Origin: an uncultured delta proteobacterium | GTDB lineage: Bacteria > Myxococcota_A > Polyangia > Polyangiales > Polyangiaceae | Length of the DNA stretch: 64,000 nucleotides | Reading direction: 5' to 3' | NCBI GenBank assembly: GCA_963763745.1 | Contig: CAVXQJ010000016.1 | Location: forward strand, 513,029-577,028 | Shown here: piece after piece, positions 20,003 through 52,588 of the stretch | Numbering within the stretch: the stretch's first letter is position 1 | Layout: each line of letters starts with the position of its first letter | Notes under the pieces: generated by a model | Databases searched by the model: none | The model's input: only the letters and a program-made list of their open reading frames with translations | Told to the model about the DNA's origin: nothing | Position numbers and translations under genes: made by a program

Positions 20003-20043
20003 GGCGAGGTGCAAATACCACGAATTTGCTGCATTCTGCACGT

Positions 20044-21521
20044 ATGCTCGCCGCGCTCTTCTTCGCCGCCGCAACGATCAACATCACGCCCGCCGACGAC
20101 TACAAGAAGATCGAAGCTGCGCAGCCGGGCGACGAGGTCGTCATCGCGCCGGGCAAGTACGCCTTCCGCGTCTACCTCACGCAGCAAGCGCCCGCGAACA
20201 ATCCGATCGTCATCCGCGCCCAGGATCCGGCGAACCCGCCCGTGTGGGATCTCTCCGCGCAGAACGTGGAGGACGCGCCCGGAAGCTACACGGCCGGCGA
20301 TCGCGGGCGCGGGTGCTGGCAACTCTCGGGCGCGACGAACATCACGATCGAGAGCATCGTCTTCACCGGTTGTCACACCGCGTCGTTCAACTCGGCGGGC
20401 ATTCGCTACTACGAGACGACGACCGGCTTGATGATTCGCGACTGCGTCTTCAAGAACAACGACGACGGCCTCACCGGCGGAACGCAAAACAGCGAAGCGA
20501 CCGTCGAGTTCTCCGAGTTCGACTCGAATGGCAACTTGAACGCATCGAACGGATCACCGACGCACAACATCTACATCTACGGCGGCACGTTCACGCTGCG
20601 TTATTCGTACCTCCACGATCCGACGCAAGCTCAGAATTTTCACATCCGCGCGACGCAAGCGCTCATCGAGTCGAACTGGATTACGCACGGCAAGAGCTAC
20701 GAAGGCGACTTGATGCCGAGCGACGACTTCTCCGGCAACGGCCCGTTCTCGCAGTCGATGATTTTCGCGGCAACGTGATCGTGCAGGGAAACCCGGCGAA
20801 TCACTCGCAGATCATTGCAGTCTACAACGATGCGGGCGTGGCGAACCTCACGATGCACGTCGAGGCGGTGAACAACACGGTCATCGCGGCCGCGCCGCAG
20901 GGCGCGCTCATCCACTTGTCGAACGCGGACGGCACGAAGATGAACGGCGTCATGTCGAACAACATCCTCGTCACGTCGACGACGGCCTACGCGATCGAGG
21001 ACACGCAAAACGGCGCGATGAGCGGCCAGAACAATTGGCTCATGACGGGCACGAGCCCGGGCGCGCTCACCGGATCGGTTCTCGGGAGCGCGCCGGGATT
21101 TCAAACGGCGCTCGCGTATCGATTGGACACGGGAAGCGCCTGCATCGGCGCGGCCGCATCCGTGCAGAATACACCCATCTCCGAGTACTACTTGGACGAC
21201 AAGACGACGCGCATGTACCGCGCGCGCGCGTCCGTGAAGGACATCGGCGCGTTCGAACAGGCGACGACGGGAAGCGGGATTGGTCCGTATGGGACGCAGC
21301 CGGAGCCGGACGGTGGGGTGAATTTCGGAGACGGAGGCGGAGTCGGGGACGGAGGCGGGGGCGGAGACGGAGGCGGGGGCGGAGACGGGGGCGGAGCCGG
21401 AGGCGGAGGCAGCGGCGGGTGCGGATGCGATGTCGTCGGGGCGAGCTCGTCTTCTTATTTCGGCGTCGTCATGCTCGCGATCGGGCTTGCTTGCCGGAGG
21501 CGCGCGCGGCGTGGTACCTGA
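20044..21521 (+). CDS. Secreted parallel beta-helix protein with Gly-rich linker and MYXO-CTERM-like C-terminal sorting tail; apparent -1 frameshift near 20760-20778
   Basis: Signal peptide MLAALFFAAAT; N-part in frame of ORF 20026..20778, C-part in frame of ORF 19893..21521; adding one T to the T4 run at about 20762-20765 joins ...PFSQSMIF to RGNVIVQGNPANH...; C-terminus GGCGCDVVGASSSSYFGVVMLAIGLACRRRARR. Confidence 0.6.
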
Positions 21522-31678: not shown

Positions 31679-32624
31679 GATACGTCTCGATCGCCGCGCG
31701 ATCGTTGTCGTTGAGGACCTTCGCGTAGAGGATGATTTCGCCGATGAGCCCGCAGTAGCTCCGATAGCCGCTCGACCCTGCGACGTAGCCCACGAAGTTC
31801 GACGTTCGCGTGACGTTCTTCGGCGTCGTCATGAAGTTGTTCACCGCGGTGACCGCGTTGCCATCGAGGTAGAGGTACCCGCTCGTCGATGCGTTTTCCG
31901 GCGATTGCGGCAAGACTGCTTCGTAGACGTGCGTGATGCCGTTGACCCAAGTCGTGCCGCCGTCTGCGGTGACGTTGCCCGTTCCGTTCGTCACTTCGCT
32001 CGCGATCCGGAAATCGCCCGACGTCGTGTTGCCCGGCGTTGGGTTGCGACCCAACCAAACTTCGCCGTTCGTGGTCGTGTCGTCTGGCGCCATGTCGAGG
32101 AAGCCGGACGCGTTGCCGATGAACGAGCTGTTGCAATCTTGAGGCTGCGCGACGACGAAAATGGCGAGCCCGTTCGTGAAGTCGGAGAAGCCCGACGACA
32201 CGGCAAAACAATTCGCGAAGTACGGATTGAACGACCACGCGGGAAGCCCGTGGAGCGAGTTCGTGAGGAGCGAAGGCGCGCTACACGACGCGTCGTTCGA
32301 GCTCACCGTGTAGCTCTTCGGCGAGCGATCCGTCCACGTGGAGAGTCCGCCGTCGACCGCGTTCGCGCCGAAATCCGCGGAGAGCCAAAGCTCGAGACCG
32401 GCGATCGACGTTGGCGAGAACCCCGCCTCGACCGGCGCGTCCGCCGAGACGTCGCTCGGTGCGTCGGCACCTGCGTCCGTCGCGGTGTCGATCGCGACGT
32501 CGGATGCGTCGTTCCCACGCAAATCGTCGAGCGGCGTGAGTAGCGTGCACGCCGTGAATGCCGCCGCCGCTGCGATCGTGAAATACCTGCCCCGCACGAG
32601 CCAAGGTTCGCAGACTTGCATCAT
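31656..32624 (-). CDS. Secreted concanavalin-A-like lectin/glucanase (LamG-like) domain protein
   Basis: Trimmed from ORF 31656..33326 to MMQVCEPW...AAAAAFTAC signal; C-terminal LamG-like [37 protein letters not shown]; convergent 23-nt overlap with hutU. Confidence 0.55.
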
Positions 32625-32651
32625 CGACTCAACTCGGCTTTCACTGGGGCG

Positions 32652-33977: not shown

Positions 33978-34459
33978 CTCACATCCATTGCAAGGAGCGC
34001 CGCGCGGAACGCGGCGAGCTCCTCTCCTTTGATACGCCCGCCGTATCTTCGCACGAGCGCGCGCAGCTCGGGACTGGAGATGTGGCAGCGGCGGCTGATG
34101 AGGCGGTGCTTGCGGACGTAAGCGAACACCTGCCGCATGCGCGGGAGCGAGACGGCTTCGACGCTCGCCGCGAAACGAACGCGCATCGCTTCGAGCTCTT
34201 CAGAGGCGAACTGCTCGTATGGTTTTCGCGTCTCGCGCTCCGACTCCCAAGGCCCGCCACTGCTCTCGTAGTGAATGCCGTCACGCCACACGCTCTTGTC
34301 GGCGAAGTGGCTCCAATGCACTTCGCCTTTCGGCACGCTCGGATCGAGCTCGAGCCACGGCGTTTGCATGCCGGAGATCGAGGCCGCCGTCAGTCGTCCG
34401 CGCGCATCGTATCGAAGACGGAGAACGCGGTCGCCGAGACGCTCCTCGATCTGCGCCAT
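33974..34459 (-). CDS. Hypothetical protein (161 aa)
   Basis: Trimmed from ORF 33974..35020 to MAQIEERLGD...; upstream part of that ORF is Arg-rich off-frame. Confidence 0.45.
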   Translation of the reverse strand: MAQIEERLGDRVLRLRYDARGRLTAASISGMQTPWLELDPSVPKGEVHWSHFADKSVWRDGIHYESSGGPWESERETRKPYEQFASEELEAMRVRFAASVEAVSLPRMRQVFAYVRKHRLISRRCHISSPELRALVRRYGGRIKGEELAAFRAALLAMDVS

Positions 34460-34461
34460 GC

Positions 34462-35049
34462 TCAATTCGTGATGAGCGCGTAGACCTCGTCGATGGTCGT
34501 CCCGCTCTGGTCGACTTGCATCTCGAGCGCGCTGCCGACGAACGCGTAGCGCGCGTGCTGCGTTGGCGTCGCGGAAGGGCAGGTCCCCGTGATGTCGAGC
34601 TCGCCGCTCGCGGGCTCCGTTCCGATCGAGCTTGTGCGTGAAATGGTTTGCGGGTTCGTGATGGCAGCGGCTTCGATGTCCCAACCGCCGCTCGTCTTCG
34701 TGAGCTGGAGCGCTGCTTGAACGGATCCGACGGTGCCGCTCGCGCCGTTCGGACCGGTGAAGACGGTGGCCGACTTCAAGATGTAGACGCCGCCGACGAG
34801 CGGCGTGGTCTGTCCCGCGAACGGCGGCGCGGACTCTGCGAGCTCTTGAATCGTGATCGTCGGTGCGAGGCCCACGTCGACTTGGTTGCACGCTCCGCCA
34901 TCGTTCGGCGGAACGACGACGTCGACCTTGGACGAGTCTTTCACGCTCACATCGGTCGCGTCGGCTGCCGCATCGGTCGCGCTCGAGTCGTCGCTGATCT
35001 GTCCGCCGCACGCGGCACAAGCGAGAACGACGACGACGACGCGCATCAT
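34462..35049 (-). CDS. Hypothetical lipoprotein
   Basis: Trimmed from ORF 34462..35304 to MMRVVVVVLACAACGG lipobox; start overlaps upstream stop (TGATG). Confidence 0.5.
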   Translation of the reverse strand: MMRVVVVVLACAACGGQISDDSSATDAAADATDVSVKDSSKVDVVVPPNDGGACNQVDVGLAPTITIQELAESAPPFAGQTTPLVGGVYILKSATVFTGPNGASGTVGSVQAALQLTKTSGGWDIEAAAITNPQTISRTSSIGTEPASGELDITGTCPSATPTQHARYAFVGSALEMQVDQSGTTIDEVYALITN

Positions 35050-35288
35050 CACCCTTGCTTGGGCTCGCTCGACTGACCTTCGAGCCAGAGCTTCGTCACC
35101 TTGAGCTTGCCGGGAATGCGCGACGGCCCGAGCTCGACGTTGATCTTCGCGCCCGGGGTGAGATCCTTGGAAGCCGCGAGCGACACGACCGCATCGAAGG
35201 AGAGCTCTCCCGTTCCTTCGATGTTCACCTTGCCGAAGCCCGCTTCCTTCTGAAACGAAACGACCACGCCTTTTCCGGTCTGCGCCAT
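35049..35288 (-). CDS. Small OB-fold (cold-shock-like) protein
   Basis: MAQTGKGVVVSFQKEAGFGKVNIEGTGELSFDAVVSL follows the G.V..F....GFG.I cold-shock pattern; 79 aa. Confidence 0.4.
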   Translation of the reverse strand: MAQTGKGVVVSFQKEAGFGKVNIEGTGELSFDAVVSLAASKDLTPGAKINVELGPSRIPGKLKVTKLWLEGQSSEPKQG

Positions 35289-35356
35289 GACTCGAGCGTA
35301 TCACGCCAGATCGTCACCGAACTTGACATCTTGTCTGGCCATGACAGAGTGACGAC

Positions 35357-37731: not shown

Positions 37732-38694
37732 ATGGCCACGCCGTTCGATCAACTCCTCAAACGCCACTTTTGGGCGCCCACGCTCGCGCTGACCTCGGTC
37801 GCCGCGTTCTTCGGCGCTCGTGGCGTGGGTAACCTCTTCGGCGCGAGCCTCGGCGCGGACGACAAGCAACTCTCCGCGCCGCCGATGGCGACGAAGGCCG
37901 CACCCGCCTCGTCGAATGCAACGCAAAAGGCGACGAGCGCCGATCCGATCCTCGCGCGCAACCCGTTCGATTCGGTGACGGGACCGCTCCTTCGTGGCGT
38001 CGGCGACGACAACGCGATCGCAGTCCCCGTGGACATGAGCGATCCGACGAACGCGCCCACGTGCGACGGCGTGAAGGTCTTGATCATCGCCGCCTCGTCG
38101 GATCCGGATTGGTCGTTCGTCGCGCTGCAGGCCCCGGGCGATACGAAGAGCGTGCTTCGCCGTCGTGGCGGTGACTTCGCCGGTAAAGAGGTGAAGTTCG
38201 TCGGTTGGGATCGCGTGTGGCTCTCGGGTGGCGGTCAGCTCTGCCAAGCTTCGATGTTCAATCCGCAGGGCCCGCCTCCGACGACGCCCGTCGCGAGCGT
38301 CGCGCAACCTCCCCCCGCGGGCGGCGCGGGCGCCGTTCCGGACGACATCAAAAAAGGAATCGTTCGCATCAGCGCGACGGAGTTCAACATCGACCGCGGC
38401 ATCGTCGACAAGATCCTCGAGAACCAAGCCGAGCTGATGAAGCAGGCGCGCATCGTTCCCGAGCAAGAGAACGGCAAGGTCGTTGGCATTCGCCTCTTCG
38501 GCGTCCGCAACGACACGCTCCTCGGCGCGCTCGGAATGGAAAACGGCGATCGCCTTCAATCGATCAACGGATTCGACATGACCTCGCCCGAAAAAGCGCT
38601 CGAAGCCTACGCGCGACTTCGCACCGCCGATCACATGACGGTCGCGATCAACCGCAAAGGCTCCAACACGAACCTGGATTACAACATCAAATGA
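37732..38694 (+). CDS. gspC: Type II secretion system protein C (N-terminal TM, C-terminal PDZ)
   Basis: TM helix then C-terminal PDZ-like VVGIRLFGVRNDTLLGALGMENGDRLQSINGFDM; first gene of T2SS operon. Confidence 0.7.
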   Translation: MATPFDQLLKRHFWAPTLALTSVAAFFGARGVGNLFGASLGADDKQLSAPPMATKAAPASSNATQKATSADPILARNPFDSVTGPLLRGVGDDNAIAVPVDMSDPTNAPTCDGVKVLIIAASSDPDWSFVALQAPGDTKSVLRRRGGDFAGKEVKFVGWDRVWLSGGGQLCQASMFNPQGPPPTTPVASVAQPPPAGGAGAVPDDIKKGIVRISATEFNIDRGIVDKILENQAELMKQARIVPEQENGKVVGIRLFGVRNDTLLGALGMENGDRLQSINGFDMTSPEKALEAYARLRTADHMTVAINRKGSNTNLDYNIK

Positions 38695-38942
38695 ATCCCG
38701 AGACCCCGCTCCTCAAACAGACTCTTCGCACGACGGCCCTCATGGTCGTTCCCGTCGCGGCGTTTCTCGCGATCTTGAGCGCCGTCGCGCTCTTCGCCGT
38801 TCCGTCGTCTTCTCCGAGCGGCGCGACCAAGGAAGAGCGCGTCGTCACCGCGGGCGACAAGTCCGGCGATCAAGCGACGACGCCAGTCGCCAACCCGCGC
38901 ATCCCCGGCGCTCGCGCGACCGTCAAACCGAACAAGAACTGA
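38691..38942 (+). CDS. 83-aa single-pass membrane protein inserted between gspC and gspD
   Basis: ATG overlaps gspC stop (ATGA); MNPETPLLKQTLRTTALMVVPVAAFLAILSAVALFAVPSSS...; ends 2 nt before gspD start; last 83 codons of ORF 38205..38942. Confidence 0.5.
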   Translation: MNPETPLLKQTLRTTALMVVPVAAFLAILSAVALFAVPSSSPSGATKEERVVTAGDKSGDQATTPVANPRIPGARATVKPNKN

Positions 38943-38944
38943 TC

Positions 38945-41492
38945 ATGCGCGCATCCACGCTTTCGCTCGTCGCCGTCACCGCGCTCGTGAGTGCGTATTC
39001 GACCGTGCTCTTCGCGCAGCGCACGATCCAGCGCGTGCCAACCGTCGCCACGACCACCACGGCGGCGACTGGAAATCCGGGCGCTCCTCCAACGACGACC
39101 ACGCAAGGCGGCGGTGCTGGAGGCGGCGGTGCGGGAGGAGGAACGACGGGCAACACGACGCAACCGCAACAAGGCGGCGGCGCGGGTGGTGGTCAGCGCA
39201 CGACGGGCCCCGGCGGAAAAGCGCAAGGCGACACGGCGGCGCTCCCGCAATTCGAACAAGGCGTCGAATACGAACCGCGCGATCCCAATTACAAAGTATC
39301 GCTCTCGCTCGAAGACGCGGATCTCGCCGAGCTCGTACGCGTCATTGGCCAGCTCACGGGCAAACGCTTCATTTTTGGCGGCAAAGTCCGCAACATCAAA
39401 GCATCGATTTATGCGCCTCAAAAAGTGACGGTCGGCGAGGCGTATCAAGCGTTCTTGTCGATCCTCGAGACGAACGGGCTCACCGTCGTTCCGCACGGGC
39501 GCTTCCTGAAGATCGTCGAGACGGGCGGCATCGCGACGCAAGCCACGCCGACGTACAACGCGGGACAAGCCGCGCCCGGCGAAGATCGCTACGTGACGCG
39601 CATGCTCCGTTTGCAGCACGCGCCCGCCGACGAGATCGGCAACGTGCTCGGTCACTTCAAATCGAAGGACGGCGACATCACAGTTAGCGGCCTCCGGCAA
39701 CTTGCTCATCATCACGGACACGGGCGCCAACATTCGCCGCATGATGCAGATCGTCGAGGAGATCGACGTGGGCGCGGCGGGCGACCAAATGTGGATCGAG
39801 CCGATCCACTACGCGTCTGCGGCGGAGATCGCGTCGCGCATCAACGAGCTCTTCGAGCTCAAAGGCGGCGGCGAGAAGGGCAAAGGCGGCGGCGGTGGCG
39901 TCGGCGATTTGCACGTGACGAAGGTCGTCGCCGACGAACGCTCGAACTCGGTCATCATCGTGTCGACGGAGCGCGCTTACATGCGCATCCTCGAGTTCAT
40001 CAAGCGACTCGACGTGCCGCAAACGGGCGAGGGCGAGATTCACGTTCTCCCGCTGCAGCACGCGGACGCCGTCGAGCTCACGAAGACGCTCAACGAGCTC
40101 GTGCAAGGATCGAACACGGCCGCCGGCGGCGCGGGCAGGCCAGGCGCGGGGAAGGACTCGGCGCCCGTCCTCACGCAAGTCTTCGAGGGCGGCATCAAGC
40201 TCAGCGCCGACAAGGCGACGAACTCGATCGTCATCACGTCGTCGCTGCGCGATTTCGCGTCGCTCCGCGCGGTCGTCGATCGCCTCGATCAAGCGCGCCG
40301 TCAGGTCTTCATCGAAGCCGTCATCATGGATCTCTCGGTGACGCGCTCGACGCAGCTCGGTTTGAATTTTCACGGCGGCGGTTTGAGCGATCTCGGCATC
40401 GGCGGCGGACAGTCGCTTCTCTTCGGCGGTCTCAATCCGCTCGAGACGGTGAGCCCGCTCGGATCCGATCCGTCGATCCTCCAAGGTCTCGCGCTCGGCT
40501 TGCGCGGACCTGGCATCCCCGGAACGGAGAGCGCGAACGTGACGGGACAAACGATTCCCGCGTTCGGCGTGATCCTTCAAGCGCTCACGACGGCGGGCGA
40601 CACCGACGTCCTCTCGACGCCGCACATCCTCGCGACCGACAACATCAAAGCGGAGATCAACGTCGGACAGAACATCCCGCTTCAAACGAACATCGGCGGA
40701 CTGCCTCCGACGGGCGGCGCGGGCGGCTCGACGGCGCTGCCGACGGGCTTCGGTTTCGGCTTCGGCGCTTCGCCCGCGCGCCAAGACGTCGGCACCAAGA
40801 TCACGATCACGCCGCACTTGAACGAATCGAACGAAGTGCGTTTGGAGCTCGCGGAAGAAATCAGCGAAGCAGGCGACGCGATCGGCCAGCTCGGCGTCGT
40901 CCCGATCACGAAGCGCACGGCGAACACGCAGCTCGTCGTGAAAGATCAGCAGACCGTCGTCATCGGCGGGCTGATGCGCAATCGCCTCGCGCACCAAGAG
41001 ACGAAGATCCCGATCCTCGGCGACATCCCGCTGCTCGGCATCCTCTTCCGTCAGACGACGAACACCGTTCAGAAGTCGAATCTGCTCCTCGTGCTCACGC
41101 CGTACATCATTCGCGAGCAGGCGGATTTGCGCGCGATCTTCGAGCGCAAGATGCAAGAGCGCCAGGAGTTCCTCGATCGCTACTTCGTATTCTCCGAAGA
41201 TCACGATTACAAACCAGTCAAAGACTATTCGCGCACGAACGGGCTCCTCGAGGACATCAAAGCCACGTATCGCGCAGTCGACGAGCGCGAGCGCATCGAA
41301 GAGATCATGCGCCCGCGCGACGTCATCGGACACGCGCCGGGCGAGCCTCTCGATCTTCCGTCGCAAATGCGCTCCGGCGCCGGCGGCGGGACGACATCCA
41401 CCGAAGCGAAGCCGCCGACGGAGCAAGCGGGCAAGCCGGCCAACATCACGGTGACGCCGCCCGTTCGCAACATCGAGCGCATGGAGAAGTGA
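38945..41492 (+). CDS. gspD: Type II secretion system secretin GspD, interrupted by an apparent +1 frameshift near 39684-39692
   Basis: Signal peptide, N0-N3 domains (frame of ORF 38945..) then NLLIITDTGANIRRM and secretin domain (frame of ORF 39702..41492); removing one G from agcggcc reads DITVSASGNLLIITD. Confidence 0.8.
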
Positions 41493-43341
41493 TGCGCGAA
41501 GAACGATTCCTCGGAGAGCTGCTCGTTCGCCGCGGTCTCGTCGCCGAGGATCGCCTCGAGCCGCTTTACGCAGTTCAAAAAGAGCGCGGCGTGGCGCTGA
41601 CCGATTTGCTCGTGAACCAGCAGCTCGTCGATCCCGAGGCGGTCGCGCGCGCGGTCGCCGACGAAGCACAGCTCGCGGTCGTCCTCACGATCGATCCGGA
41701 GAAAATCCCAAACGCGATCGCGACGCGCACGCCCATCACGTTCGCGAAGAACCATCGGCTCCTCGCGTTCGCCGAGGACGATCAGTTCGTCCACGTGTAT
41801 TGCGCCGATCCGTTCGATACCGCGCCGCTCGACGATTTGCGATTGCTCTTCGGCAAGCCGGTCGAGTGCATCGTCGCGCCCGCCGAGAAGATCGTCGACG
41901 CCATCAACCGCGTCTTCGAGCGCGAAGCAGGCGGCGGCGAGCTCGAGACCGAAGCCGGCGAGGTGCACGAAGAAGAGGGCGGCGGAGACATCCTCGACTC
42001 TGACGACGAAGCGCCCGTCATTCGCTGGGTGAACTCCCTCTTTTTGCACGCGATGAAAGAGCGCGCGAGCGACATTCACATCGAGCCCGAAGAGAAGAGG
42101 TCATCGTTCGATATCGCATCGACGGCGAGCTCTACGTCGCGCGTCGCGCGCCGCGAAACTTCATGAACGCGATCATCTCGCGCGTGAAGATCGAGAGCGC
42201 GCTCAACATCGCAGAGAAGCGCTTGCCGCAAGACGGACGCATCACGAAGAAGATCGCCGGCAAGGGATTCGACATCCGCGTCTCGACCATCCCGACGAGC
42301 CGCGGATACGAGCGCATCGTCATGCGTCTCTTGAACAAGTCGAGCGTGCTCCTCGACCTCAGCGATCTCGGGTTCTCGCCGCGCGACTACGCGCTGATGG
42401 ACACCCTCATCCGCAGGCCCGACGGCATCATCCTCGTCACGGGCCCCACCGGCTCCGGAAAGACGACGACGCTCTACGCGTGCATCAACCGCATCAACGA
42501 TCCGAACATCAACATCCTCACCGCGGAGGACCCGGTCGAGTACGAGATCTCGGGTATCCACCAGGTGCACGTTCAACCGAAGATCGGTTTGACGTTCGCG
42601 AGCGCGCTCCGCGCGTTCTTGCGCCAAGACCCCGACGTCGTCATGGTCGGCGAGATCCGCGACAAGGAAACCGTCGACATCGCGATCAACGCGTCGCTCA
42701 CCGGTCACCTCGTGCTCTCCACGATCCACACGAACGACGCGGCGGGCGCCATCACGCGCATGATCGACATGGGCGTCGAGCCCTTCTTGATCCGTTCGAG
42801 CGTGATCGGGATTCTCGCGCAGCGCCTCGTGCGCGTTCTTTGTCCGCATTGCAAAGAGCCTTACGAGGCTCTCGACTCGGAGCTCGAAGAGCTCGGGCTC
42901 GGGCAAGATCGCATCGCGTGGCGCGGGCGTCGCCGCACGCGCGAGGGCACGGGCTACTACCCGCGCGGCACGCCCGATCGCGACGTGCTCGATCTCGAGC
43001 GCGGCGTGCGTCCGATGTTTTTTCGCGCGCGCGGCTGCGAGAAATGCGCGAACACCGGTTTTTCCGGGCGACGCGGCATTTACGAGTTGCTCTTGATCGA
43101 CGACCAAGTCGGACCGCTCGTTCTCCGCAGCGCCGACGCGCAAGCGATCAAACGCGCCGCGCAAGACCAAGGCATGGACACGCTCCGCGACGACGGCGCG
43201 CGCAAAGTGCTCGCGGGTCTGACGACGGTCGAAGAGGTCCTCGCCGCGAAGGGCGAAGACGTCGATCCCATGACACCGTCATCCACCTCGACTCCACCCG
43301 TGTCCGCGCGTACCGTCGCGCCAGTCACTGCGCGGGAGTAA
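41492..43341 (+). CDS. gspE: Type II secretion ATPase GspE, interrupted by an apparent -1 frameshift near 42095-42102
   Basis: N1E domain, then [11 protein letters not shown] (frame 1) continues as (R/E)[12 protein letters not shown]...NAIISRVK in frame of ORF 42163..43341; Walker [12 protein letters not shown]; tetracysteine CPHC...CEKC. Confidence 0.8.
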
Positions 43342-43344
43342 GAG

Positions 43345-44775
43345 ATGGCGGTCTTCGAATACCGCGGAGTCCTCGTCGCGAGCGGGAAGCAGGTGCACGG
43401 CTTCCGCGACGCCGACAACGCACGCGTCTTGCGCTCGGCGCTGAAGCGCGAAGGCGTTCTCCTCACGAACGCGACCGAAGACACCAAAGCGCAAGGCCAG
43501 AAGGCTTCGCGCAACATCGATTTCGCTCGGGTTCTTCCGCCGCATCGGCGTCGGCGATGTCGCGATGATGACGCGCCAGCTCGCGACGCTCGTCGGCGCG
43601 GGCATCCCGCTCGTCGAAGCCGTCTCGGCGCTCGTCGATGCAAATGGAGAAGCCCGAGCTCCAGCGCGTGCTCACGCAGGTGCGCGATCGATTGAACGAA
43701 GGTCAGTCGCTCGCGAAGGCGCTCGAAGCGCACCCCAAAGTGTTTCCGGCGCTCTACGTGAACATGGTCGCCGCCGGCGAAGCATCGGGAACGCTCGAGC
43801 AAGTGCTCATGCGTCTCGCGGACTTCCAAGAGAATCAAGCGAAGCTGCGCGGCAAAGTCTCCGCTGCGCTCGCTTATCCCGTTTTGATGATCATCATCGG
43901 CACCGCGCTCATCAGCGTGATGATGGTCGCCGTCGTGCCGAAGGTGACATCCATCTTCGCGAGCCTCGGCCAAGCGCTGCCTTGGTACACGGCGACGCTC
44001 ATCTTCATCTCCGACGTGGTCAGCTCGAACGAGACCGTCGGATTCGTGCTCACGCTCGGCACGCTCACGTCGATGCGCAAAGCGATGACGAAGCCGGCGA
44101 CGAAGAGCGGCGCGGAAGACACGCAGCAAAACACGGCAAGCCTCGTGTGGGTCGTCGTGACGGCGGTGTTCGCACTCACGCTCATCCTCGCCGCGTTCGC
44201 GGTGTCGTCGCTCGTCGCTTATGCGATCGGCATCGGTCTCGGAATCTTCGGCGGCGTCTTCTTGTCGCGCTTCGTCGCGTTTCTCGGAAAGCCCGAGGGG
44301 CGTTTGTGGCGCGACACGATGATCCTCGAAATCGCCGCTCATCGGCCCGCTCGCGCGCATGCTCGCGGTCGCGCGCTTCTCTCGCACGCTCGCGACGCTC
44401 CTTCAAAGCGGCGTGCCGCTCCTCAAGGCGATGGAGATCGTGAAGAACGTCCTCGACAACGCGAAGCTCGAGAAGGTCGTCGAGACCGCGGCCGGATCGA
44501 TCCGCGAAGGCGAGTCGATCGCCGCGCCGCTCAAACGAAGCGGAGATTTCCCGCCGATCGTGACGCACATGATCGCCGTCGGCGAGAAGAGCGGCGAGCT
44601 CGAGACGATGCTCGAGAACGTCGCCAAGGCCTACGACACGCAAGTCGACACGCGCGTTCAGGCGCTGACGAGCTTGCTCGAGCCGCTCATCATCGTCTTT
44701 CTCGGCGGCGCCGTCGGCTTCATCGCGTTTTCGATTTTGATGCCGCTCATCCAGATGAACGACTTCGTGCAGTAA
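43345..44775 (+). CDS. gspF: Type II secretion inner-membrane platform protein GspF, interrupted by three apparent +1 frameshifts (about 43526-43533, 43637-43641, 44326-44332)
   Basis: Four collinear frame segments (ORFs 43345.., 43565.., 43638.., 44359..44775) each matching successive GspF regions, e.g. ITRQLATL and SPLIGPLARMLAVARFSRTLATLLQSGVPLL. Confidence 0.75.
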
Positions 44776-44779
44776 GAAG

Positions 44780-45181
44780 ATGAAGACCTCGCAAAAAGTA
44801 TTTTTCCCGTGGGAGCGCCGGCGAGGGCTGCTCGGTGCGATCGCGCGGACGCGCGGGCGGTTCATCTTGGGCGCGATCGCCGTCATCGTTCTCGTCGTGT
44901 GGATCAGCCGGCGCGAAGAGCACGCGGCCGCGGTGCGCGCGACGCGCGCGACGATCGACACCGCGTTTCACGCGATGATTCAGTATCGCGCCGACCACGC
45001 CGGGCATTGCCCGCGCGATTGGAACGAAATGGTCGCAGCGGCTTACTTGCATGACGTCCCGCTCGACGCGTGGGGACGCCCTTTGCGACTCACGTGTCCA
45101 GGCCGGCGCGACGCGGCCGGATTCGATCTGGAAAGTGACGGACCCGACGGCATCGCCGGTGGGCTCGATAGAGTTGAATGA
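44780..45181 (+). CDS. GspG-like pseudopilin paralog lacking a canonical prepilin leader/cleavage motif
   Basis: TM helix GAIAVIVLVVWI then pilin-like ...AFHAMIQYRADHAGHCP and GspG-type C-terminus LDAWGRPLRL...DGPDGIAGGLDRV; no G-F/V-T-L-x-E site. Confidence 0.5.
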   Translation: MKTSQKVFFPWERRRGLLGAIARTRGRFILGAIAVIVLVVWISRREEHAAAVRATRATIDTAFHAMIQYRADHAGHCPRDWNEMVAAAYLHDVPLDAWGRPLRLTCPGRRDAAGFDLESDGPDGIAGGLDRVE

Positions 45182-45336
45182 TGATCAAGGAGACGAATAT
45201 GCGAATCGCAAAACAGTTGATGTTCTCCCATGGGGGGGACAGGGGGGGCAAAGCCCCCCGTTGGGATCGAGCTGCAGGCGAGATCCGCAGGGAAGTGAGC
45301 GCGCAAAGCGCGCGAGAAGGGACGCAGTCCCTTCTT

Positions 45337-45750
45337 GTGACTAACAAGCATTTCTCCAAGGCGCTGCGCCGTTCACTCTCACGCGGCGTCACGCTCGTCG
45401 AGATTCTCATCGTGCTCGCGATCGTCGGGCTCATCGCGGGCGGCATTGCCGTCTACGCGGTGCCGAAGTTCCAACAAGCGCAAAAAGACAACACGAAGAA
45501 CTCGCTCAAAGCGCTTCACGCCGTCGCCGAAGCGTGGCGCGCGAATCACGGAAACGATTGCCCGACGGTCCAACGCCTCAAAGAGGAGAAGGAGCTCGCG
45601 GCCTCGAGCGACATCAACGACGCATGGGGCGATCCCTACAAGATCCAATGCGACGACGACGCAACCTCCGTGATCAGCTGGGGCCCGGACAAGAAAGAGG
45701 GCACGCAGGACGACATCAAGTTCCCGGACAACACACCGGCCAAGCAGTGA
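45337..45750 (+). CDS. gspG: Type II secretion major pseudopilin GspG
   Basis: GTG start giving 17-aa leader MTNKHFSKALRRSLSRG|VTLVEILIVLAIVGLIAG; C-terminal DAWGDPYKIQCDD...ISWGPDKKEGTQDDIKF GspG signature; 138 aa. Confidence 0.75.
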   Translation: MTNKHFSKALRRSLSRGVTLVEILIVLAIVGLIAGGIAVYAVPKFQQAQKDNTKNSLKALHAVAEAWRANHGNDCPTVQRLKEEKELAASSDINDAWGDPYKIQCDDDATSVISWGPDKKEGTQDDIKFPDNTPAKQ

Positions 45751-45751
45751 A

Positions 45752-45925
45752 GAGAGGCTTTGGGCTTTGGGCCTTGGGCTTTAGGAAGAAAGATGAACAG
45801 GAAGATCAAAAGATCAGGAAGAAGAGTTGGGGGGGAATCCTCACTCCATTCTTCTGATCTTCCCGATCTTCCTGTTTTCACTTTCTTTCGCCTAAAGCCC
45901 AAGGCCCAAAGCCCAAAGCCTCGCG
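45752..45925. repeat. Repeat family 3 copy 3: about 175-bp compound hairpin with perfect 32-bp outer inverted repeat, immediately downstream of gspG (approximate)
   Basis: Outer IR gaggctttgggctttgggccttgggctttagg / cctaaagcccaaggcccaaagcccaaagcctc; inner stem gaacaggaagatcaaaagatcaggaagaag / cttctgatcttcccgatcttcctgtt. Confidence 0.65.
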
Positions 45926-46638
45926 CGCTTCGTGCGCACCAGCGCGCTGTCACGCTCGTCGAGATTCTCATCGTGCTTCTCATCGTGACGCTGCTCTTGG
46001 CTGGCGTCGTGATGGGGTCGGGGCAGCTCGCCAGCGCGAAGTTGCACAAGAGCGCGACCGCGCTCACGGGCCTCATTCGCGTCGCGTACGTGCGCGCGAC
46101 GGTCACCGCGCGCAGCGAGCGCATCGTGTTCGACATCGACAACAGCAAGTTCTGGCTCGAAGAGTCCGAGCAGCCGATGCTCGTCCAAACGCACGACACG
46201 ACCGGCACGGGCGGCGCAGACCCCGTCACTGCCGCGGAGCAACAAGCGCTCGCCGAGACGGCACGACTCGTCCATGGCCCCGAGGCGCCGCGCGCGACGT
46301 TTCACAAGGTCAAACCAGGCTTGTACGCGGCAGGCGACAACCAAGGCGGGTCGGATCAAGGTCTCCCGTTTGGAATCAAGTTCAGGGCGGTGCAGACCGC
46401 CCACGACGAAGAAGCACGTACGAAGGGGCGCGCATATTTGTATTTCTGGCCTGGCGGGCTGACCGAGCGCGCGCACGTCGTGTTGCGAAAAGGCGATTCG
46501 CTCGCAGACGCAGACGCGGAGACGCTCGTCGTCGCGCCCCTCACCGGCTCCGCCGTCATCAAAGCGGGCAACATCTCTTTTCCCACCATCACGGACGAAA
46601 AGGATCTCTCCGAACGCGTCGATCAGGGCTCGCCATGA
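45793..46638 (+). CDS. gspH: Minor pseudopilin GspH-like; start uncertain (only in-frame ATGs lie inside the upstream hairpin repeat)
   Basis: Pilin N-terminus RA|VTLVEILIVLLIVTLLLAG; 4-nt overlap with gspI; leader would be 52 aa if ATG 45793 is used. Confidence 0.55.
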   Translation: MNRKIKRSGRRVGGESSLHSSDLPDLPVFTFFRLKPKAQSPKPRALRAHQRAVTLVEILIVLLIVTLLLAGVVMGSGQLASAKLHKSATALTGLIRVAYVRATVTARSERIVFDIDNSKFWLEESEQPMLVQTHDTTGTGGADPVTAAEQQALAETARLVHGPEAPRATFHKVKPGLYAAGDNQGGSDQGLPFGIKFRAVQTAHDEEARTKGRAYLYFWPGGLTERAHVVLRKGDSLADADAETLVVAPLTGSAVIKAGNISFPTITDEKDLSERVDQGSP

Positions 46639-47354
46639 AGTCGCGTGGCTTTTCCCTTCTCGAGGTCATGGTCGCGCTCGCGATCTTCGGGTTGATGATC
46701 TCGGGCATTTTGGCTGCGCAGGCCGGGCTTGCGGCGAGCAACAAGAAGGCCGCCAACATGGGCCAAGCCACGACGCTCGCCCGGTGCAAGATGACCGAGC
46801 TCGAAGAAAAGTTGATGAAGCTCGGTTATCCCGCGATCGACGACATCGACAATGGCGTCATCTGCTGCGAGGCAACCGACCTAACGACGTATTCTTGCGA
46901 TTACAAAGTAGAGAAAATCATCATGCCGGATCCGCCGACGAGCGCGACGGATCTCGACGCCGGCGCGGCGAGCCTCCTCGGCCTCAATGATGGCGGCTCG
47001 ACGGCGACGCTCGATTTCGACGGCGGGCTCGGCGCGATGGGCGCCATGCTCGGACCGGCGGCGGGCACTGGAGGCGCGTCGGGTCTCGTCGATATGGCGA
47101 TGGGGATCGTTTATCCGATGATGAAGCCGATGATGGAAGCTTCCATTCGGAAGATCACCGTTACGGTGCATTGGAAAGAGGGCCCGAACCCAGTCGAATT
47201 CGTTCTCGCGCAATACGTGACGAACCCGCAGACGGGTGGATTTCAGGGCGGGTTCTTCGGCGATGCAGGCGGTCCGCTTCCAACCGGATCTGGTGCGCCG
47301 CCGGTGAAGGGCGCGCCGCCGGTGCGGACCGGAACCGCAGGAGCGCCGTTCTAA
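46635..47354 (+). CDS. gspI: Minor pseudopilin GspI-like
   Basis: MKSRGFSLLEVMVALAIFGL prepilin motif (G|FSLLE); ATGA overlap with upstream gene. Confidence 0.65.
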   Translation: MKSRGFSLLEVMVALAIFGLMISGILAAQAGLAASNKKAANMGQATTLARCKMTELEEKLMKLGYPAIDDIDNGVICCEATDLTTYSCDYKVEKIIMPDPPTSATDLDAGAASLLGLNDGGSTATLDFDGGLGAMGAMLGPAAGTGGASGLVDMAMGIVYPMMKPMMEASIRKITVTVHWKEGPNPVEFVLAQYVTNPQTGGFQGGFFGDAGGPLPTGSGAPPVKGAPPVRTGTAGAPF

Positions 47355-48046
47355 TGCGCAATCGTTCTCGCTCCCGCGGCCTCACGCTCGTCGAAGTGCT
47401 CGTCGCGCTCGCCGTGCTGACCATGATCGGCGTGCTCCTCTATGGCGTGTTCGACTCGCTCGCCCATGGCAAGAAAGCCGAGAGCATCCGCGGGGAGCGA
47501 GCGCGCGAAGGCCGCTCCGCCGTTCTGCGCATCACGCGCGAGATGCAAAGCGCATTTCTCTCGATGCACAACCCGGGGAACGTCGCGCTCCAAACGCGCG
47601 TCGTCGCGTTCATCGGCCAGAACGCGCAGCCGTTCGATCGTCTGGATTTTCAGGCTTTCGCGCATCGCCGTGTCGAAGCCAAGAGCCATGAGTCGGACCA
47701 AGCCGAGATCGGTTATTTCGCTTCACCCGATCCGAACGTCGACGAAAAAATGGATCTCGTGCGACGCGAGCAAACGCCCGCTGACATGGACGCGAAGCGC
47801 GGCGGCGTCGTGAACGTGCTCTGCGAAGACATCGAGAGCTTCGACGTGCGTTATCTGGATCCGCAAACGAGTCAGTGGCTCGAGGCGTGGGACACGACCC
47901 AAGCGCTCGGCCAACAAGGACGGTTGCCGCTCGAAGTACGGCTCACGCTCACGCTCAAACACGTGCCCGCTGGTTTGCAATCGACATACACGACCAAGTT
48001 CATGATGCCGATGCAGATGCCTCTCACCTTCGGGATCCCGCAATGA
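47354..48046 (+). CDS. gspJ: Minor pseudopilin GspJ-like
   Basis: MRNRSRSRGLTLVEVLVALAVLTMIG prepilin motif; trimmed from ORF 47171..48046. Confidence 0.65.
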   Translation: MRNRSRSRGLTLVEVLVALAVLTMIGVLLYGVFDSLAHGKKAESIRGERAREGRSAVLRITREMQSAFLSMHNPGNVALQTRVVAFIGQNAQPFDRLDFQAFAHRRVEAKSHESDQAEIGYFASPDPNVDEKMDLVRREQTPADMDAKRGGVVNVLCEDIESFDVRYLDPQTSQWLEAWDTTQALGQQGRLPLEVRLTLTLKHVPAGLQSTYTTKFMMPMQMPLTFGIPQ

Positions 48047-49422
48047 GACCGCGAAAGAAGACTCGCAAGTCGCGCAAGCGCGGGATCGCTCTCATCATGG
48101 TGCTCGGCGCGCTCACGATTCTCACGATGATGCTCGCGGAGTTCCAGGCGGACACGAGCGCGACGCTCGCGAGCGCGATGGCCGATCGCGATGGCGTTCA
48201 AGCGGAATACAATGCTCGTTCGGCGGTCAATCTCTCGAGGCTTCTCATCTCGATGGAACCAACGATTCGACAGGCCATCGCGCCGCTCTTCGCGATGATG
48301 CAGCGCGCACCGCCGCAGCTTCCCGTCTGGGAGTTCTCGGACAAGTTGCTCGCGCCATTCAACGACAAAACCGCAAACGACGAGTTCGCGGCCTCCATCA
48401 AAGTGAGCTTTGGGACCGGCAAGAACCTCGGCCTGCCCGCGGGTCGCTTCGAAGTGAAGATCGTCGACGAGGACGCCAAGATAGACGTCAACCTCGGCGC
48501 GTCGAACGACATCGCTCACATCCGCCTCGCCAAAGAGCTCATGGGCTTGATGGCGCCGCCGCAATACAACCCGCTATTCGAGCAGCGCGACTCGGCAGGC
48601 AACTACCACGATCGCATGACCATCTGCGCGGCCATCATCGACTGGGCCGACGTCGACGAGCTCGCGATGAATTGCGACATGCAAACGCCAAACGCGCCAC
48701 CGAGCGCGGGCGTCGAGGACGCGTATTACCAACTACTCGCCGTCAAACCTTATCGTCGTAAGAACGCTCCATACGATTCACTCGAGGAGCTCCACATGGT
48801 GCGCGGCATCACCGACGATTTCTGGGCGACGTTCGTCGATCCCGATCCGACGAAGCCCGAAAAGCGCGTGATGACGGTGTGGGGACAAGGCGCCGTGAAC
48901 GTGAACAGCGCGAACGCGCAAACGCTCCTCGGCGTCGTGTGCTCGGGCGCGCCGACGGCCACGATCTGCACCGATCCGACGCAAGCTGGCATGTTCCTTT
49001 CGGGCATGATGATGGCGCGCGCCATGACGATGGGCGCTCCGCTCTTCGGCACCGTGAACGACTTCATCGCGATGATGAAGGGCTCGGGTCCGATGGGCGG
49101 CATCCTCAAAGGCATGGGCATGACGCCCGTGAAGTTCCTCTCGGAGGCGGAGTTCGCAAAGACGATCACGACCGAGAGCAAGGTGTTTTCGATTTATGCC
49201 GTCGGCGTCATCAAAGGATACAAACGCGAAACGCGGTTGCGCGTCGTCGAGGTCGTGGATTTTCGAAACGCGCCGAATCTGACGGGCGCGCCGACAGGCG
49301 GGGCCGGATCGCCGAGCGCATCACCAACGAGCCCGCCACCCGCATCCACCTCTGCGCTGGCGAGTGGGCCCATCACCATGCCGGCGACCGGCGGCAACGT
49401 GATTTATTTTCGGATCGACTAA
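48043..49422 (+). CDS. gspK: Minor pseudopilin GspK
   Basis: RKRGIALIMVLGALTILTMMLAEF GspK-type N-terminus; ATGA overlap with gspJ; trimmed from ORF 47875..49422. Confidence 0.7.
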   Translation: MRPRKKTRKSRKRGIALIMVLGALTILTMMLAEFQADTSATLASAMADRDGVQAEYNARSAVNLSRLLISMEPTIRQAIAPLFAMMQRAPPQLPVWEFSDKLLAPFNDKTANDEFAASIKVSFGTGKNLGLPAGRFEVKIVDEDAKIDVNLGASNDIAHIRLAKELMGLMAPPQYNPLFEQRDSAGNYHDRMTICAAIIDWADVDELAMNCDMQTPNAPPSAGVEDAYYQLLAVKPYRRKNAPYDSLEELHMVRGITDDFWATFVDPDPTKPEKRVMTVWGQGAVNVNSANAQTLLGVVCSGAPTATICTDPTQAGMFLSGMMMARAMTMGAPLFGTVNDFIAMMKGSGPMGGILKGMGMTPVKFLSEAEFAKTITTESKVFSIYAVGVIKGYKRETRLRVVEVVDFRNAPNLTGAPTGGAGSPSASPTSPPPASTSALASGPITMPATGGNVIYFRID

Positions 49423-49434
49423 AAGGAAGAGCGA

Positions 49435-50952
49435 ATGGCCAGGTATCTCGGAATCGACATCGGCACGACGAGCGTGAAGGCGGCAGTGCTCCGCGTCGCG
49501 TATCGCAAGCTCGTGCTCGAAGGTCTCGGCTCCGCGCCCATTCCTCCGGACGGAGATCGCGCAGCGGCGATTCGCGAAGCGTCGCAGGCGGCGCTCGGTC
49601 AAGGCGCGGCCGACGGCGTCGCGACGGCCATCCCCGGAACCGAGATCACGCTCCGCACGGTGCGCATCCCCGAGAGCGCGCAGCGTCAGCTCGCCGAGGT
49701 CCTTCCGTTCGAGCTCGAGTCGCAGCTCCCGTTCGATCTCGACGACGCGATCCTCGATTACCGCGTCATCGAGGGTGCGACGAACGACGAAGGCCTCGCC
49801 GTTCTCAGCGCGGTCACGCGCGTCGATGACGCGCGCAAACGCGTCGATCTCGTGAAGAGCGCGCTCGGCACGGAGCCCGAGCGGCTCGGCGTGGGGCCGT
49901 TTCCGCTCGCGAACCTCGCGCCGTATGCGGCCGAGCTCCGCGCGGAAGGGACCGTTGCGCTGCTCGATCTCGGAACGAAGACGAGCGACCTCCTCTTCAT
50001 GCAAGGCGGCGAGCCCGTCTTCGCGCGCACGCTCTCGCTCGGCACCGAAGGTCTCCCACAGACGGCGGCGAGGCTCGCGCGCGAAATCCGTCTGTCGCTC
50101 GCCGCGTTCCGCGCGCAGGGCGGCGTGCTTCCGAACGAGATTTACCTGTGCGGCGGCGGCGCGTTCGTGTCGGGCGCCGAGTCGTTCCTCGCGGCGGAGC
50201 TCGAGCGACCCGTCGTGCGCATGCCTGCGCTCTCGATGGAGCTCGGCGAGCGCGTGGGTCGCATCGCGAACGACTTCCCGCTCTACGCAGTCTCGATCGG
50301 GCTGGCACTATCGCTCTCCTCGCGCGATGGCGGGCTCGACATGCGCAAAGGCCCGCTCGCGTACGAGCGCGGATACGGATGGATGCGCGATCGCATCCCC
50401 GCGCTCGTCGGTCTCGGCGCGGTGATCGCCGTGAGCTTCGTGTTCTCGTCGTGCACGGGCGTCTACGCGGCGTCGAAGGAGCGCACCACCCTCGAAGCGG
50501 CGCTCGGCAACGTGACGAAAGAAGTCTTCGGCGAAGAGACGACGAGCGCCGAGCACGCGACCGAGCTCCTCGCCGCGCAAAACGCGACGGAAGAAGATCC
50601 CCTCGCGCACGCCGACGCGTTCGACGTGATGGTGCGCCTCAGCGAGCACATCCCGCAATCGATGACGCACGACATCGAAGAGCTCGACGTGCAGAAGGGC
50701 CACATCGTCGTTCACGGCATCGTCGGCACGATCACCGAGGCGCAATCCATCGTGACGTCGCTCGCCACCGAGAAGTGCTTCTCCGACGTGAAGAACACGC
50801 GCATCAGCCAAGTCGTCGGAGGCGAGCGACAGAAATACGTGATCGAGTTCGACCTGAAGTGTCCGGAGGACGTGAAGGCGGTGAAGAAGAAGACGGACTC
50901 ATCGGCGTCCGGAAGCGCAGCGTCGAGCGCGACCAGCGCAGCGGGGAAATGA
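49435..50952 (+). CDS. gspL: Type II secretion protein GspL (cytoplasmic actin-like domain, TM, periplasmic domain)
   Basis: YLGIDIGTTSVKAAVL actin-like fold N-terminus, TM helix IPALVGLGAVIAVSFVF, periplasmic C-domain. Confidence 0.65.
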   Translation: MARYLGIDIGTTSVKAAVLRVAYRKLVLEGLGSAPIPPDGDRAAAIREASQAALGQGAADGVATAIPGTEITLRTVRIPESAQRQLAEVLPFELESQLPFDLDDAILDYRVIEGATNDEGLAVLSAVTRVDDARKRVDLVKSALGTEPERLGVGPFPLANLAPYAAELRAEGTVALLDLGTKTSDLLFMQGGEPVFARTLSLGTEGLPQTAARLAREIRLSLAAFRAQGGVLPNEIYLCGGGAFVSGAESFLAAELERPVVRMPALSMELGERVGRIANDFPLYAVSIGLALSLSSRDGGLDMRKGPLAYERGYGWMRDRIPALVGLGAVIAVSFVFSSCTGVYAASKERTTLEAALGNVTKEVFGEETTSAEHATELLAAQNATEEDPLAHADAFDVMVRLSEHIPQSMTHDIEELDVQKGHIVVHGIVGTITEAQSIVTSLATEKCFSDVKNTRISQVVGGERQKYVIEFDLKCPEDVKAVKKKTDSSASGSAASSATSAAGK

Positions 50953-51554
50953 TCATGGCGCAACGGAAACCCTTCTTCGAACGCTTCGGCCTCAACGCGC
51001 GCGAGCAGCGGCTCGCGCAGATCTTCGCCGTCGTCGCTGCGGGCATTCTTCTTCTCGGCGTGCCCATCGGACTCGAGTCGTGGGTCGCGTCGAAGCGCTC
51101 GGGCAACACGGAGCTCCGCGAGGCCATCGATGCGGTGCAAGCGTCGCGCGCGCAGATGCGCGCCTCGCAGTCGAAGCGTGACGCCATCACGAACCGCTAC
51201 GCGCGCAAAGCCCCCGAGCTCGGCGGCTACCTCGAGCAAATGGCGCGCAAACAAAAGCTCGAAGTGACCGACTCCGTCGACCGTCCGCCGCTCCCGATCG
51301 GCAAGCACTACACGGAGCGAAGCACCACGATCCACCTGAAAAAGGCTGGTTTGCTGTCGATCTCGAAATTCATGGAGTCGCTCGAGCAAGCGGGCACGCC
51401 CATCGCCATCAACCGCCTCAACTTGCGACGGCGCACGGGCGAGCAGGATTCGTACGACGTCGAGCTCGGCATCTCCGCCTACGATCGCAACGACAAGCCC
51501 AGCGCCGACGCGAAGGACGCGGGCGCGCGCGCACCGAAGGAGAGGAACAAGTGA
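50949..51554 (+). CDS. gspM: Type II secretion protein GspM-like
   Basis: Single TM (IFAVVAAGILLLGVPIGL) plus periplasmic domain; ATGA overlap with gspL and GTGA overlap with gspN. Confidence 0.55.
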   Translation: MIMAQRKPFFERFGLNAREQRLAQIFAVVAAGILLLGVPIGLESWVASKRSGNTELREAIDAVQASRAQMRASQSKRDAITNRYARKAPELGGYLEQMARKQKLEVTDSVDRPPLPIGKHYTERSTTIHLKKAGLLSISKFMESLEQAGTPIAINRLNLRRRTGEQDSYDVELGISAYDRNDKPSADAKDAGARAPKERNK

Positions 51555-52588
51555 ATCGGTGGAAGGAGCTCCTTCGCAAATACGGCAAGTGGGTTGCGTA
51601 CCCGCTCTTCTATTTGTTCATGTTCGTCCTCTGTCTTCGGCTCGTGTTTCCTTACGAGAAGGTGCGCGAGCGCATCGTCGCGAGCTTCAACTCGCAACAG
51701 CATCCCGGCCCCGGGCAGCAGCAGCTCTCGATCGACGAAGTCGGCGGGTGGTGGCTCACGGGCGTTCGCATCAAAGGCATTCGCATCGTGAGCGCGCCGA
51801 GCGAGCCGGGCGGCGCGCCGAGCGAGATGAAGATCGACGAAGCGCGCGCGAAGATCGGCGTGCTCTCGGCGATGATCGGTCACACCGACGTGAGCTTTCA
51901 CATCGATGCATTCGGCGGCGAGATCGATGGCACGTTCGAAGACAGCGCGAAGGAGCGGAGCGTCGAAGCGGAGCTCGAGGGCGTCGACTTCACGCAGATC
52001 AACGCGCTCACCGATTTGCTCGGCTTGCCCGTCGAGGGCCACGCGAAGGGAAAGCTCCTGCTCGTGATGCCCGAGCAGAAAGCATCGAAGGGAAGCGGGA
52101 CCCTCACGCTCGACGTGGCCGACGTCGCGATCGGCGACGGCAAAGCGAAGCTGAAGAACGCGCTCGACTGGCCGAAGCTCGCCGTCGGTCCGCTCTCGCT
52201 CACCGCGGAAGCGAAAGACGGCGTGCTGAAGATCACGAAGCTCTCGGCGGGCGGAAAAGATCTCGAGCTCTCGGGCGAGGGAAAAGTCCAGATGCGCGAT
52301 CTCGCCAGCGAGAGCACCGTCGACGTGAACATGAAGTTCAAGATCAACGACAGCTACCGGAGCAAGAGCAAGCTCACCGAGGCGCTCTTCGGCGCGGCCG
52401 GCTCGACCAAGGGTGGCGACGTCGATCGATTCGTGCCGAAGATGAAGAGCGCGCACCGCGCCGATGGGTTCTACGCATTTCGCTTGCAAGGTTTGCTCGG
52501 CAAGCTCGATCCGCAACCGAATCCTTCGTACGGCGGGCCGATCGCGCCCGAGCCGCGCGGCACGGCTCCACCGGATCAAGGTCCGTGA
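51551..52588 (+). CDS. gspN: Type II secretion protein GspN-like
   Basis: N-terminal TM (YPLFYLFMFVLCL) and about 300-aa periplasmic domain in the position and with the length of GspN. Confidence 0.55.
   Translation: MNRWKELLRKYGKWVAYPLFYLFMFVLCLRLVFPYEKVRERIVASFNSQQHPGPGQQQLSIDEVGGWWLTGVRIKGIRIVSAPSEPGGAPSEMKIDEARAKIGVLSAMIGHTDVSFHIDAFGGEIDGTFEDSAKERSVEAELEGVDFTQINALTDLLGLPVEGHAKGKLLLVMPEQKASKGSGTLTLDVADVAIGDGKAKLKNALDWPKLAVGPLSLTAEAKDGVLKITKLSAGGKDLELSGEGKVQMRDLASESTVDVNMKFKINDSYRSKSKLTEALFGAAGSTKGGDVDRFVPKMKSAHRADGFYAFRLQGLLGKLDPQPNPSYGGPIAPEPRGTAPPDQGP

Follow-up and report, generated by a model that had tools for sequence, protein, structure and literature searches.

Does the type II secretion system (T2SS) operon carried by an uncultured delta proteobacterium of the Polyangiaceae belong to a population that has just lost the core of its secretion apparatus, or do its apparent lesions come from the way in which the sequence was assembled? 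The question is raised by a stretch of 64,000 nucleotides (nt) of contig CAVXQJ010000016.1 (assembly GCA_963763745.1, positions 513,029 to 577,028 of the forward strand; hereafter the window), in which gspD, gspE, and gspF, the genes of the secretin, the ATPase, and the inner-membrane platform, are interrupted by shifts of the reading frame. Taken at face value, this sequence leads to an organism annotated without a functional T2SS core and with three pseudogenes, and several fragment proteins have already entered public collections. A first-pass annotation of the window had offered two explanations, a very recent inactivation or a locally error-prone assembly region. The second is favored here by the signature of selection on the three genes, by the spectrum of their insertions and deletions (indels), and by a comparison with two sister contigs, when the first is kept as an improbable alternative: the five breaks are probably not biological but locally clustered errors that remained in the consensus of a metagenome assembled from long reads.

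The breaks are present in the sequence, within a few bases of the positions first proposed for them, as seen from codon statistics, split Pfam domains, and MAFFT alignments alike. Indeed, a frame plot of GC content at third codon positions (GC3) and a codon-usage Viterbi path place jumps of the coding frame at about 39695, 42098, 43525, 43638, and 44337, and near none of these five jumps does the frame that is left contain a stop codon. Aligned pairwise and five-way by MAFFT, first with the relative L001 and then with the relatives L081, L082, and L084, the window shows exactly five non-3n gaps within gspD, gspE, and gspF (table 1). Because DNA with ~65% GC, as in the window, gives long open frames in all six phases, the length of open reading frames (ORFs) is by itself weakly informative. 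At the level of Pfam domains, the deposited GspD has N0 in frame 2 and Secretin_N and Secretin in frame 0; GspE has MshEN and positions 2–34 of T2SSE in frame 2 and T2SSE 58–369 in frame 1; and in GspF the first T2SSF domain is broken between frames at profile positions 22/25 while the second lies in a third frame, the two PF00482 domains being thus recovered from three frames. As had been claimed, each break is repairable by one nucleotide, five one-base edits yielding a single ORF per gene with the lengths given in table 1.

The alignments also fix the identity of the bases involved, and here the first-pass annotation is corrected in two details. The +1 event that it had placed in gspD is real, but the extra base is A39686 (or T39685), not the G of agcGgcc, and tblastn passes from frame 2 to frame 3 at 39684–39688. 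Likewise, the −1 event of gspE stands, but the lost base belongs to an AAA or GG di-/trinucleotide instead of a G-run: one base is missing from GAG-AA(A/G)-GAG-GTC where the relatives read EEKEVIVRY, and tblastn passes from frame 2 to frame 1. The three +1 events announced in gspF are all recovered by MAFFT and tblastn, with passages from frame 1 to frame 2 at site 3, from frame 2 to frame 3 at site 4, and from frame 3 back to frame 1 at site 5 (L082 proteins being the tblastn queries at all five sites). A 2-nt alignment gap at 41491 was rejected as a frameshift, as it corresponds to a difference at the gspD/gspE junction with respect to L001, which has TGAGATG; in the window, TGATG (41490–41494) comprises both the stop of gspD and the overlapping start of gspE. 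Finally, two fragment proteins of the window, a 392-aa (amino acid) GspE C-terminus (42163–43341) and a 138-aa GspF C-terminus (44359–44775), are on record at NCBI and ENA from one 607,100-bp contig, so the frameshifts belong to the deposited record.

Table 1. Frame breaks, genes, and sister-contig insertions considered in this study (window coordinates, unless a contig is named)
Feature	Position	Strand	Observation
gspD (T2SS secretin)	38945..41492	+	single 848-aa ORF once one base at 39686 is removed
gspE (T2SS ATPase)	41492..43341	+	single 616-aa ORF once one base is added
gspF (T2SS inner-membrane platform)	43345..44775	+	single 475-aa ORF once three bases are removed
Site 1, gspD	39685..39686	+	+1; window GTTAGCG, GT(A/C)GCG in all relatives
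Site 2, gspE	within 42092..42102	+	-1; window GAGAAGAGGTC, relatives GAGAAAGAAGTC (EEKEV)
Site 3, gspF	43524..43525	+	+1 (C43524/G43525); window TTTCGCTC, TTT-GCTC or CAT-CCTC in relatives
Site 4, gspF	43640	+	+1 G; window GATGCAA, GATCAA in all four relatives
Site 5, gspF	44327..44328	+	+1 (C44327/G44328); window CTCGAAA, CT-CAAA or TT-GAAA in relatives
Site 6, beta-helix / MYXO-CTERM protein gene	20026..21521	+	-1 in ATGATTTTCGCGG at 20762-20767; only frameshift detected outside gspDEF
Two conserved genes upstream of gspD (320 aa, 83 aa)	37732..38942	+	intact; precede gspD in all relatives
Nine downstream T2SS operon genes	44780..52588	+	GspG-like, pseudopilins, GspJ, GspK, GspL/PilM_2, three conserved unknowns; all intact
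L085 single-base insertions	5549-17765 of L085		gspD 7, gspK 2, gspL 2; none in gspE, gspF, gspG
L086 single-base insertions	1-9994 of L086		sigma-54 activator 9 in 1.09 kb, urocanase 2, several in gspD and gspE; none from gspF to gspJ

Once repaired, all three proteins exceed the cut-offs of the corresponding NCBIfam equivalogs and have the lengths of their orthologs. GspD scores 486.3 bits against TIGR02517 (cut-off 351.35), covering profile positions 2–600 of 600, GspE 648.8 bits against TIGR02533 (cut-off 630.25), and GspF 432.3 bits against TIGR02120 (cut-off 424). The secretin core and every motif that was checked are unaltered, the repaired GspE keeping Walker A/B, the His box, and both CxxC pairs (CPHC and CEKC). 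Intact gspD orthologs of 847–871 aa are found in L001, L081, L082, and L084, and a protein search with the repaired GspF retrieved intact 475-aa homologs with 94, 93, and 93% identity at 100% coverage. On a side note, GspF is 475 aa long in the clade of the window when the TIGR02120 model has 401 positions, and an extra conserved segment, common to all close relatives, lies between its two T2SSF domains (window 44050–44320), in which long hydrophobic runs come after a polar stretch (KPATKSGAEDTQQNT).

If these genes had been released from constraint, their substitutions should bear the mark of it. As estimated by the Nei–Gojobori method, the ratio of nonsynonymous to synonymous substitution rates (dN/dS) of the repaired genes against L081, L082, and L084 is 0.08–0.19, to be compared with 0.085–0.15 among those relatives. 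Similarly, amino acid changes unique to the window, defined as differences at positions where four relatives agree, number 24 in the 1,877 codons of gspD, gspE, and gspF, versus 85 in the 3,403 codons of twelve flanking genes, and only 4 of them fall in GspE and 2 in GspF, though both genes together hold four of the five indels. The relaxation of purifying selection expected of an evolutionary pseudogene is thus not observed in gspDEF, whose dN/dS resembles that of intact orthologs and whose unique changes are not in excess, and neither in-frame stops nor larger deletions occur in the repaired genes. In the literature on pseudogenes and mutation accumulation, substitutions outnumber indels 5–10 to 1; under this ratio, 18–36 extra nonsynonymous changes would be expected, when at most ~9 can be accommodated (P = 0.015 to 9e-8). 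The gspDEF region carries indels without substitutions, and for this reason a real inactivation would be extremely recent and indel-only.

The indels themselves are also of an unusual kind. In bacteria, most +1 events of spontaneous origin come from slippage in runs, which duplicates a neighboring base, and a genuine pseudogene is expected to display this spectrum, which the events of the window as a whole do not follow. The base inserted at each of sites 3, 4, and 5 is unlike both of its neighbors under every parse consistent with the relatives (a G at site 4), such that at least 3 of the 4 insertions are non-duplicating, and only sites 2 and 6, possibly also site 1, are associated with runs. 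At sites 3 and 5, the window holds in tandem a C and a G that are alternative alleles of the relatives at one synonymous position, and L081 has as its allele the A inserted at site 1. In three insertions out of four, the added base is hence the relatives' alternative allele at an adjacent column, for which we obtain a post hoc P of about 0.02–0.035 (the random chance of each being 0.17–0.22). This retention of both alleles is suggestive of a consensus computed on a collapsed two-strain mixture, of which it would be a possible product. Two other causes were considered and rejected: homopolymer error is ruled out for sites 3–5 by the alignment context, and the methylation motif TCGA is found near several sites, yet its frequency in the window, one per 75 nt, makes this proximity non-significant. 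A probe of JGI metagenomes at site 4 returned 0 matches with any inserted base, with low power given that the control without the insertion matched 1 contig only.

Besides the five breaks of gspDEF, one other frame event had been reported in the window, in a beta-helix gene near 20762, and homologs spanning the junction support it. Frame plot and Viterbi path show this sixth jump at about 20748, and the repaired 498-aa beta-helix protein matches single MYXO-CTERM proteins of 470–514 aa across the junction SQSMIFRGN, Pfam giving a weak result on the separate halves of the gene. Outside 30–55 kb, the absence of more frameshifts is a statement of codon statistics only. Two additional Viterbi frame switches, at about 12656–12829 and about 55066, were discarded as low-complexity stretches in intact radical-SAM and Ser/Thr kinase ORFs. 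As an aside, the last 252 nt of this radical-SAM ORF (Radical_SAM, Fer4_12; window 11445–11697, minus strand) lack coding signal, and its protein has an odd leucine-rich tail after CRGGCKA, so a further 3′-terminal frameshift is possible there. With 5 of the 6 events lying within 4,642 nt of 64 kb, the clustering is significant in a scan test (P = 6e-4) as in a fixed-region binomial test (3.5e-5). The earlier view that such clustering is odd for random sequencing error is therefore right with respect to a uniform model, but it does not hold in general: errors in sister assemblies are visibly overdispersed, which is why clusters of frameshifts are not by themselves biological evidence.

These sister assemblies, two Polyangiales contigs present in both ENA and NCBI, carry the same operon with the same type of event. 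In L085 (ERZ25039489 contig_28112, 1.93 Mb) and L086 (ERZ25039548 contig_10082, 1.61 Mb), whose contig_N names we take to be in the naming style of Flye, single-base insertions are dense and clustered, many genes of the locus are fragmented, and fragment proteins from such contigs are found in public collections. A base-by-base examination of the sigma-54 activator gene and gspE of L086 and of gspD of L085 showed that the inserted base is C or G in 19 of 20 cases and non-duplicating in 14 of 20, typically in C|G|C and G|C|G contexts, as at sites 3–5 of the window. On the other hand, the comparison with sister genomes revealed no frame break by tblastn or alignment in the loci of L001, L082/L083 (k141 names, presumably in MEGAHIT style), L084, and L081, all orthologs being uninterrupted at the five sites. 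L081 has nonetheless a lesion of another kind: its gspE (L081 8177–9997; JGI 3300037258, Ga0376646_0003800) contains an in-frame TAG that turns E459 into a stop (CCTTACTAGGCT) and misses the conserved GRRGIYEL through an 8-aa in-frame deletion, with gspD and gspF being intact. Real damage, a variant of the population, and a fault of assembly are all possible causes. Long-read errors are expected to hit conserved genes with single-base indels and without substitutions, as observed in gspDEF of the window, and to leave the same signature at non-homologous positions of other assemblies, as observed in L085 and L086. Since the same type of event is patchily distributed, at high density, over different genes in three independent contigs with names or a length in long-read style and is absent from the comparison loci, including the k141 contigs, we read it as an artifact of platform or consensus.

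How do the biological explanations fare in the light of these observations? In the hypothesis of a genuine, very recent inactivation, the five frameshifts are real, the T2SS core is dead, and decay has yet to reach the remaining genes of the operon. The indels are indeed in the deposited sequence and confined to three adjacent genes, L081 offers the precedent of a gspE with an in-frame TAG and the GRRGIYEL loss, and a low dN/dS is compatible with this hypothesis if the event is very young by comparison with a dS of about 0.5. We nevertheless hold it to be improbable, because five indels come with no detectable excess of substitutions, because later neutral hits should have spread over the 13.6-kb operon (the probability that all five fall in gspDEF is 0.014), because at least 3 of the 4 insertions are not the neighbor duplications that slippage generally yields, and because, to account for the events in L085 and L086, one odd mutational process would have to act in three lineages and yet spare the unbroken loci, including the k141 contigs L082/L083. 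Were the indels real, they would be an indel-only cluster of non-slippage +1 C/G insertions, pointing to a localized insertion mutagenesis in high-GC lineages including those of L085 and L086; we give little credit to this idea, which, if true, would mean the very recent loss of the T2SS secretin, ATPase, and platform from a Polyangiales population in the wild. That the core would rather have been decaying for a long time is hardly conceivable: genes disrupted several times over are a usual mark of old pseudogenes, but here dN/dS remains at the level of intact orthologs, unique amino acid changes are fewer than in the flanking genes, in-frame stops and larger deletions are lacking, motifs are intact, and the repaired lengths equal those of the orthologs. 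In this respect, genuine multi-hit pseudogenes of secretion systems, as left by reductive or niche-driven loss, likewise combine several frameshifts over neighboring genes of a single apparatus, but the window departs from them by showing no relaxed selection, substitution excess, stops, or larger deletions, and by an indel spectrum atypical of slippage.

Two further explanations assume that the sequence is right. Programmed recoding, by ribosomal frameshifting or transcriptional slippage, could in principle restore GspD, GspE, and GspF, given the conservation and the open frames found on either side of every break. This would however call for five sites of two polarities in three genes, when no slippery heptamer, stop, or rare codon is present at any site, no homopolymer tract at sites 1, 3, 4, and 5, and when no site is conserved, all relatives being uninterrupted there; the long open alternative frames are merely a property of 65% GC DNA, and recoding appears extremely unlikely to us. 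Alternatively, the contig could be an accurate short-read product in which the consensus picked up the allele of a minor or defective subpopulation, as might be suggested by the 3 of 4 insertions located at positions polymorphic among relatives, with both alleles present. Yet a 607-kb contig with six one-base indels in 64 kb would be unusual for a short-read assembly, and the tandem presence of both alleles is more naturally a consensus artifact, which makes this scenario very doubtful.

Consensus error, by comparison, is broadly in line with the literature. Indels are the main type of nanopore error and create apparent pseudogenes, the more so at low coverage (PMC8103633). In metagenome assemblies of a mock community from Oxford Nanopore Technologies reads, indels amount to about 4 per 100 kb, with a higher frequency of frameshift errors in soil data (PMC13087279); a large nanopore-only soil project on metagenome-assembled genomes (MAGs) applied a single round of Medaka polishing (PMC12313526). 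The density of indel-induced false pseudogenes in long-read assemblies is coverage-dependent (PMC8103633, PMC13087279, PMC12007338). A contig of 607,100 bp from a soil-type Polyangiales fits with such a long-read assembly. Under this scenario, the contig would have been assembled from noisy reads, the pileup over roughly 39.7–44.3 kb would have been of lower quality than on either side, owing to low depth and/or the collapse of co-occurring strains, and polishing would then have left four spurious single-base insertions and one deletion; we infer both the sequencing platform and the local cause of the clustering.

The false pseudogenes known from long reads (nanopore or PacBio continuous long reads) likewise consist of single-base indels that fragment conserved genes without substitutions, but the events of the window differ from the classic ones in being mostly non-homopolymer C/G insertions rather than homopolymer deletions, and in being clustered in one 4.6-kb stretch. 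Several points weigh against consensus error. The residual errors of well-polished long-read assemblies usually lie in homopolymers, which is not the case of sites 3–5. The kinship of the window with the data class of L085 and L086 is deduced from database sources and the 607,100-bp size only, and the window has 6 events in its 64 kb, when these two contigs locally reach several per kb; because its error density is so far below theirs, its source may be another project with cleaner data. The locus is also clean in L084, the name of which suggests nanopore sequencing followed by polishing. Lastly, L081, with its gspE stop and 8-aa deletion, is among the closest relatives, and a genuine damage of the ATPase in the clade is therefore conceivable.

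The surroundings of the three genes are those of a conserved operon. A scan of species-representative genomes with a GspE fragment returned Polyangiales/Polyangiaceae MAGs, L001 being the best among the matches listed, with 90% amino acid identity. From about 30.0 to 54.8 kb, L081, L082/L083, and L084 are syntenic with the window at ~84% nucleotide identity, and gene order is identical in L001, L081, L082, L084, L085, and L086: a sigma-54 activator, the 320-aa and 83-aa genes, gspD, gspE, gspF, gspG-like, pseudopilins, gspJ, gspK, and gspL/PilM_2. When 21 proteins of L082 were used as tblastn queries, 18 other genes between 30011 and 54781 gave single-frame, end-to-end matches; the intactness of the downstream T2SS genes, already pointed out in the first-pass annotation, is thereby confirmed for the nine genes of table 1, among which Pfam detects T2SSG, N_methyl, T2SSJ, T2SSK_1st, PilM_2, and T2SSL. 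The window hence has the gene order of Gsp-type T2SS operons of Polyangiales, which comprise the GspD secretin, the GspE ATPase, the GspF platform, the pseudopilins GspG-K, and GspL/M-like components, and its repaired proteins reach the NCBIfam equivalogs, with the difference that its three core genes are each out of frame as deposited. One more sequence, the Logan contig L087, encodes a GspG-like protein 96% identical to that of the window, with DNA only 86.6% identical, and terminates 247 nt before reaching site 5. Two stretches of the window (31656–32650 and 33978–35300), located between the genes of urocanase and of the sigma-54 activator, are poorly matched or unmatched in the relatives by blastn; they hold minus-strand ORFs of 324, 168, 202, and 83 aa without a Pfam match, a locus-specific content beside the conserved T2SS block.

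Overall, the case is most probably devoid of biological novelty and amounts to a note on assembly quality that advances no open biological question. Its practical consequence is that contigs of this sort need frameshift-aware correction before they enter inventories of pseudogenes or secretion systems. As for the organism, the sequence most likely describes an ordinary, functional-looking type II secretion operon of Polyangiales, and the locus is to be read as an intact T2SS of this order.

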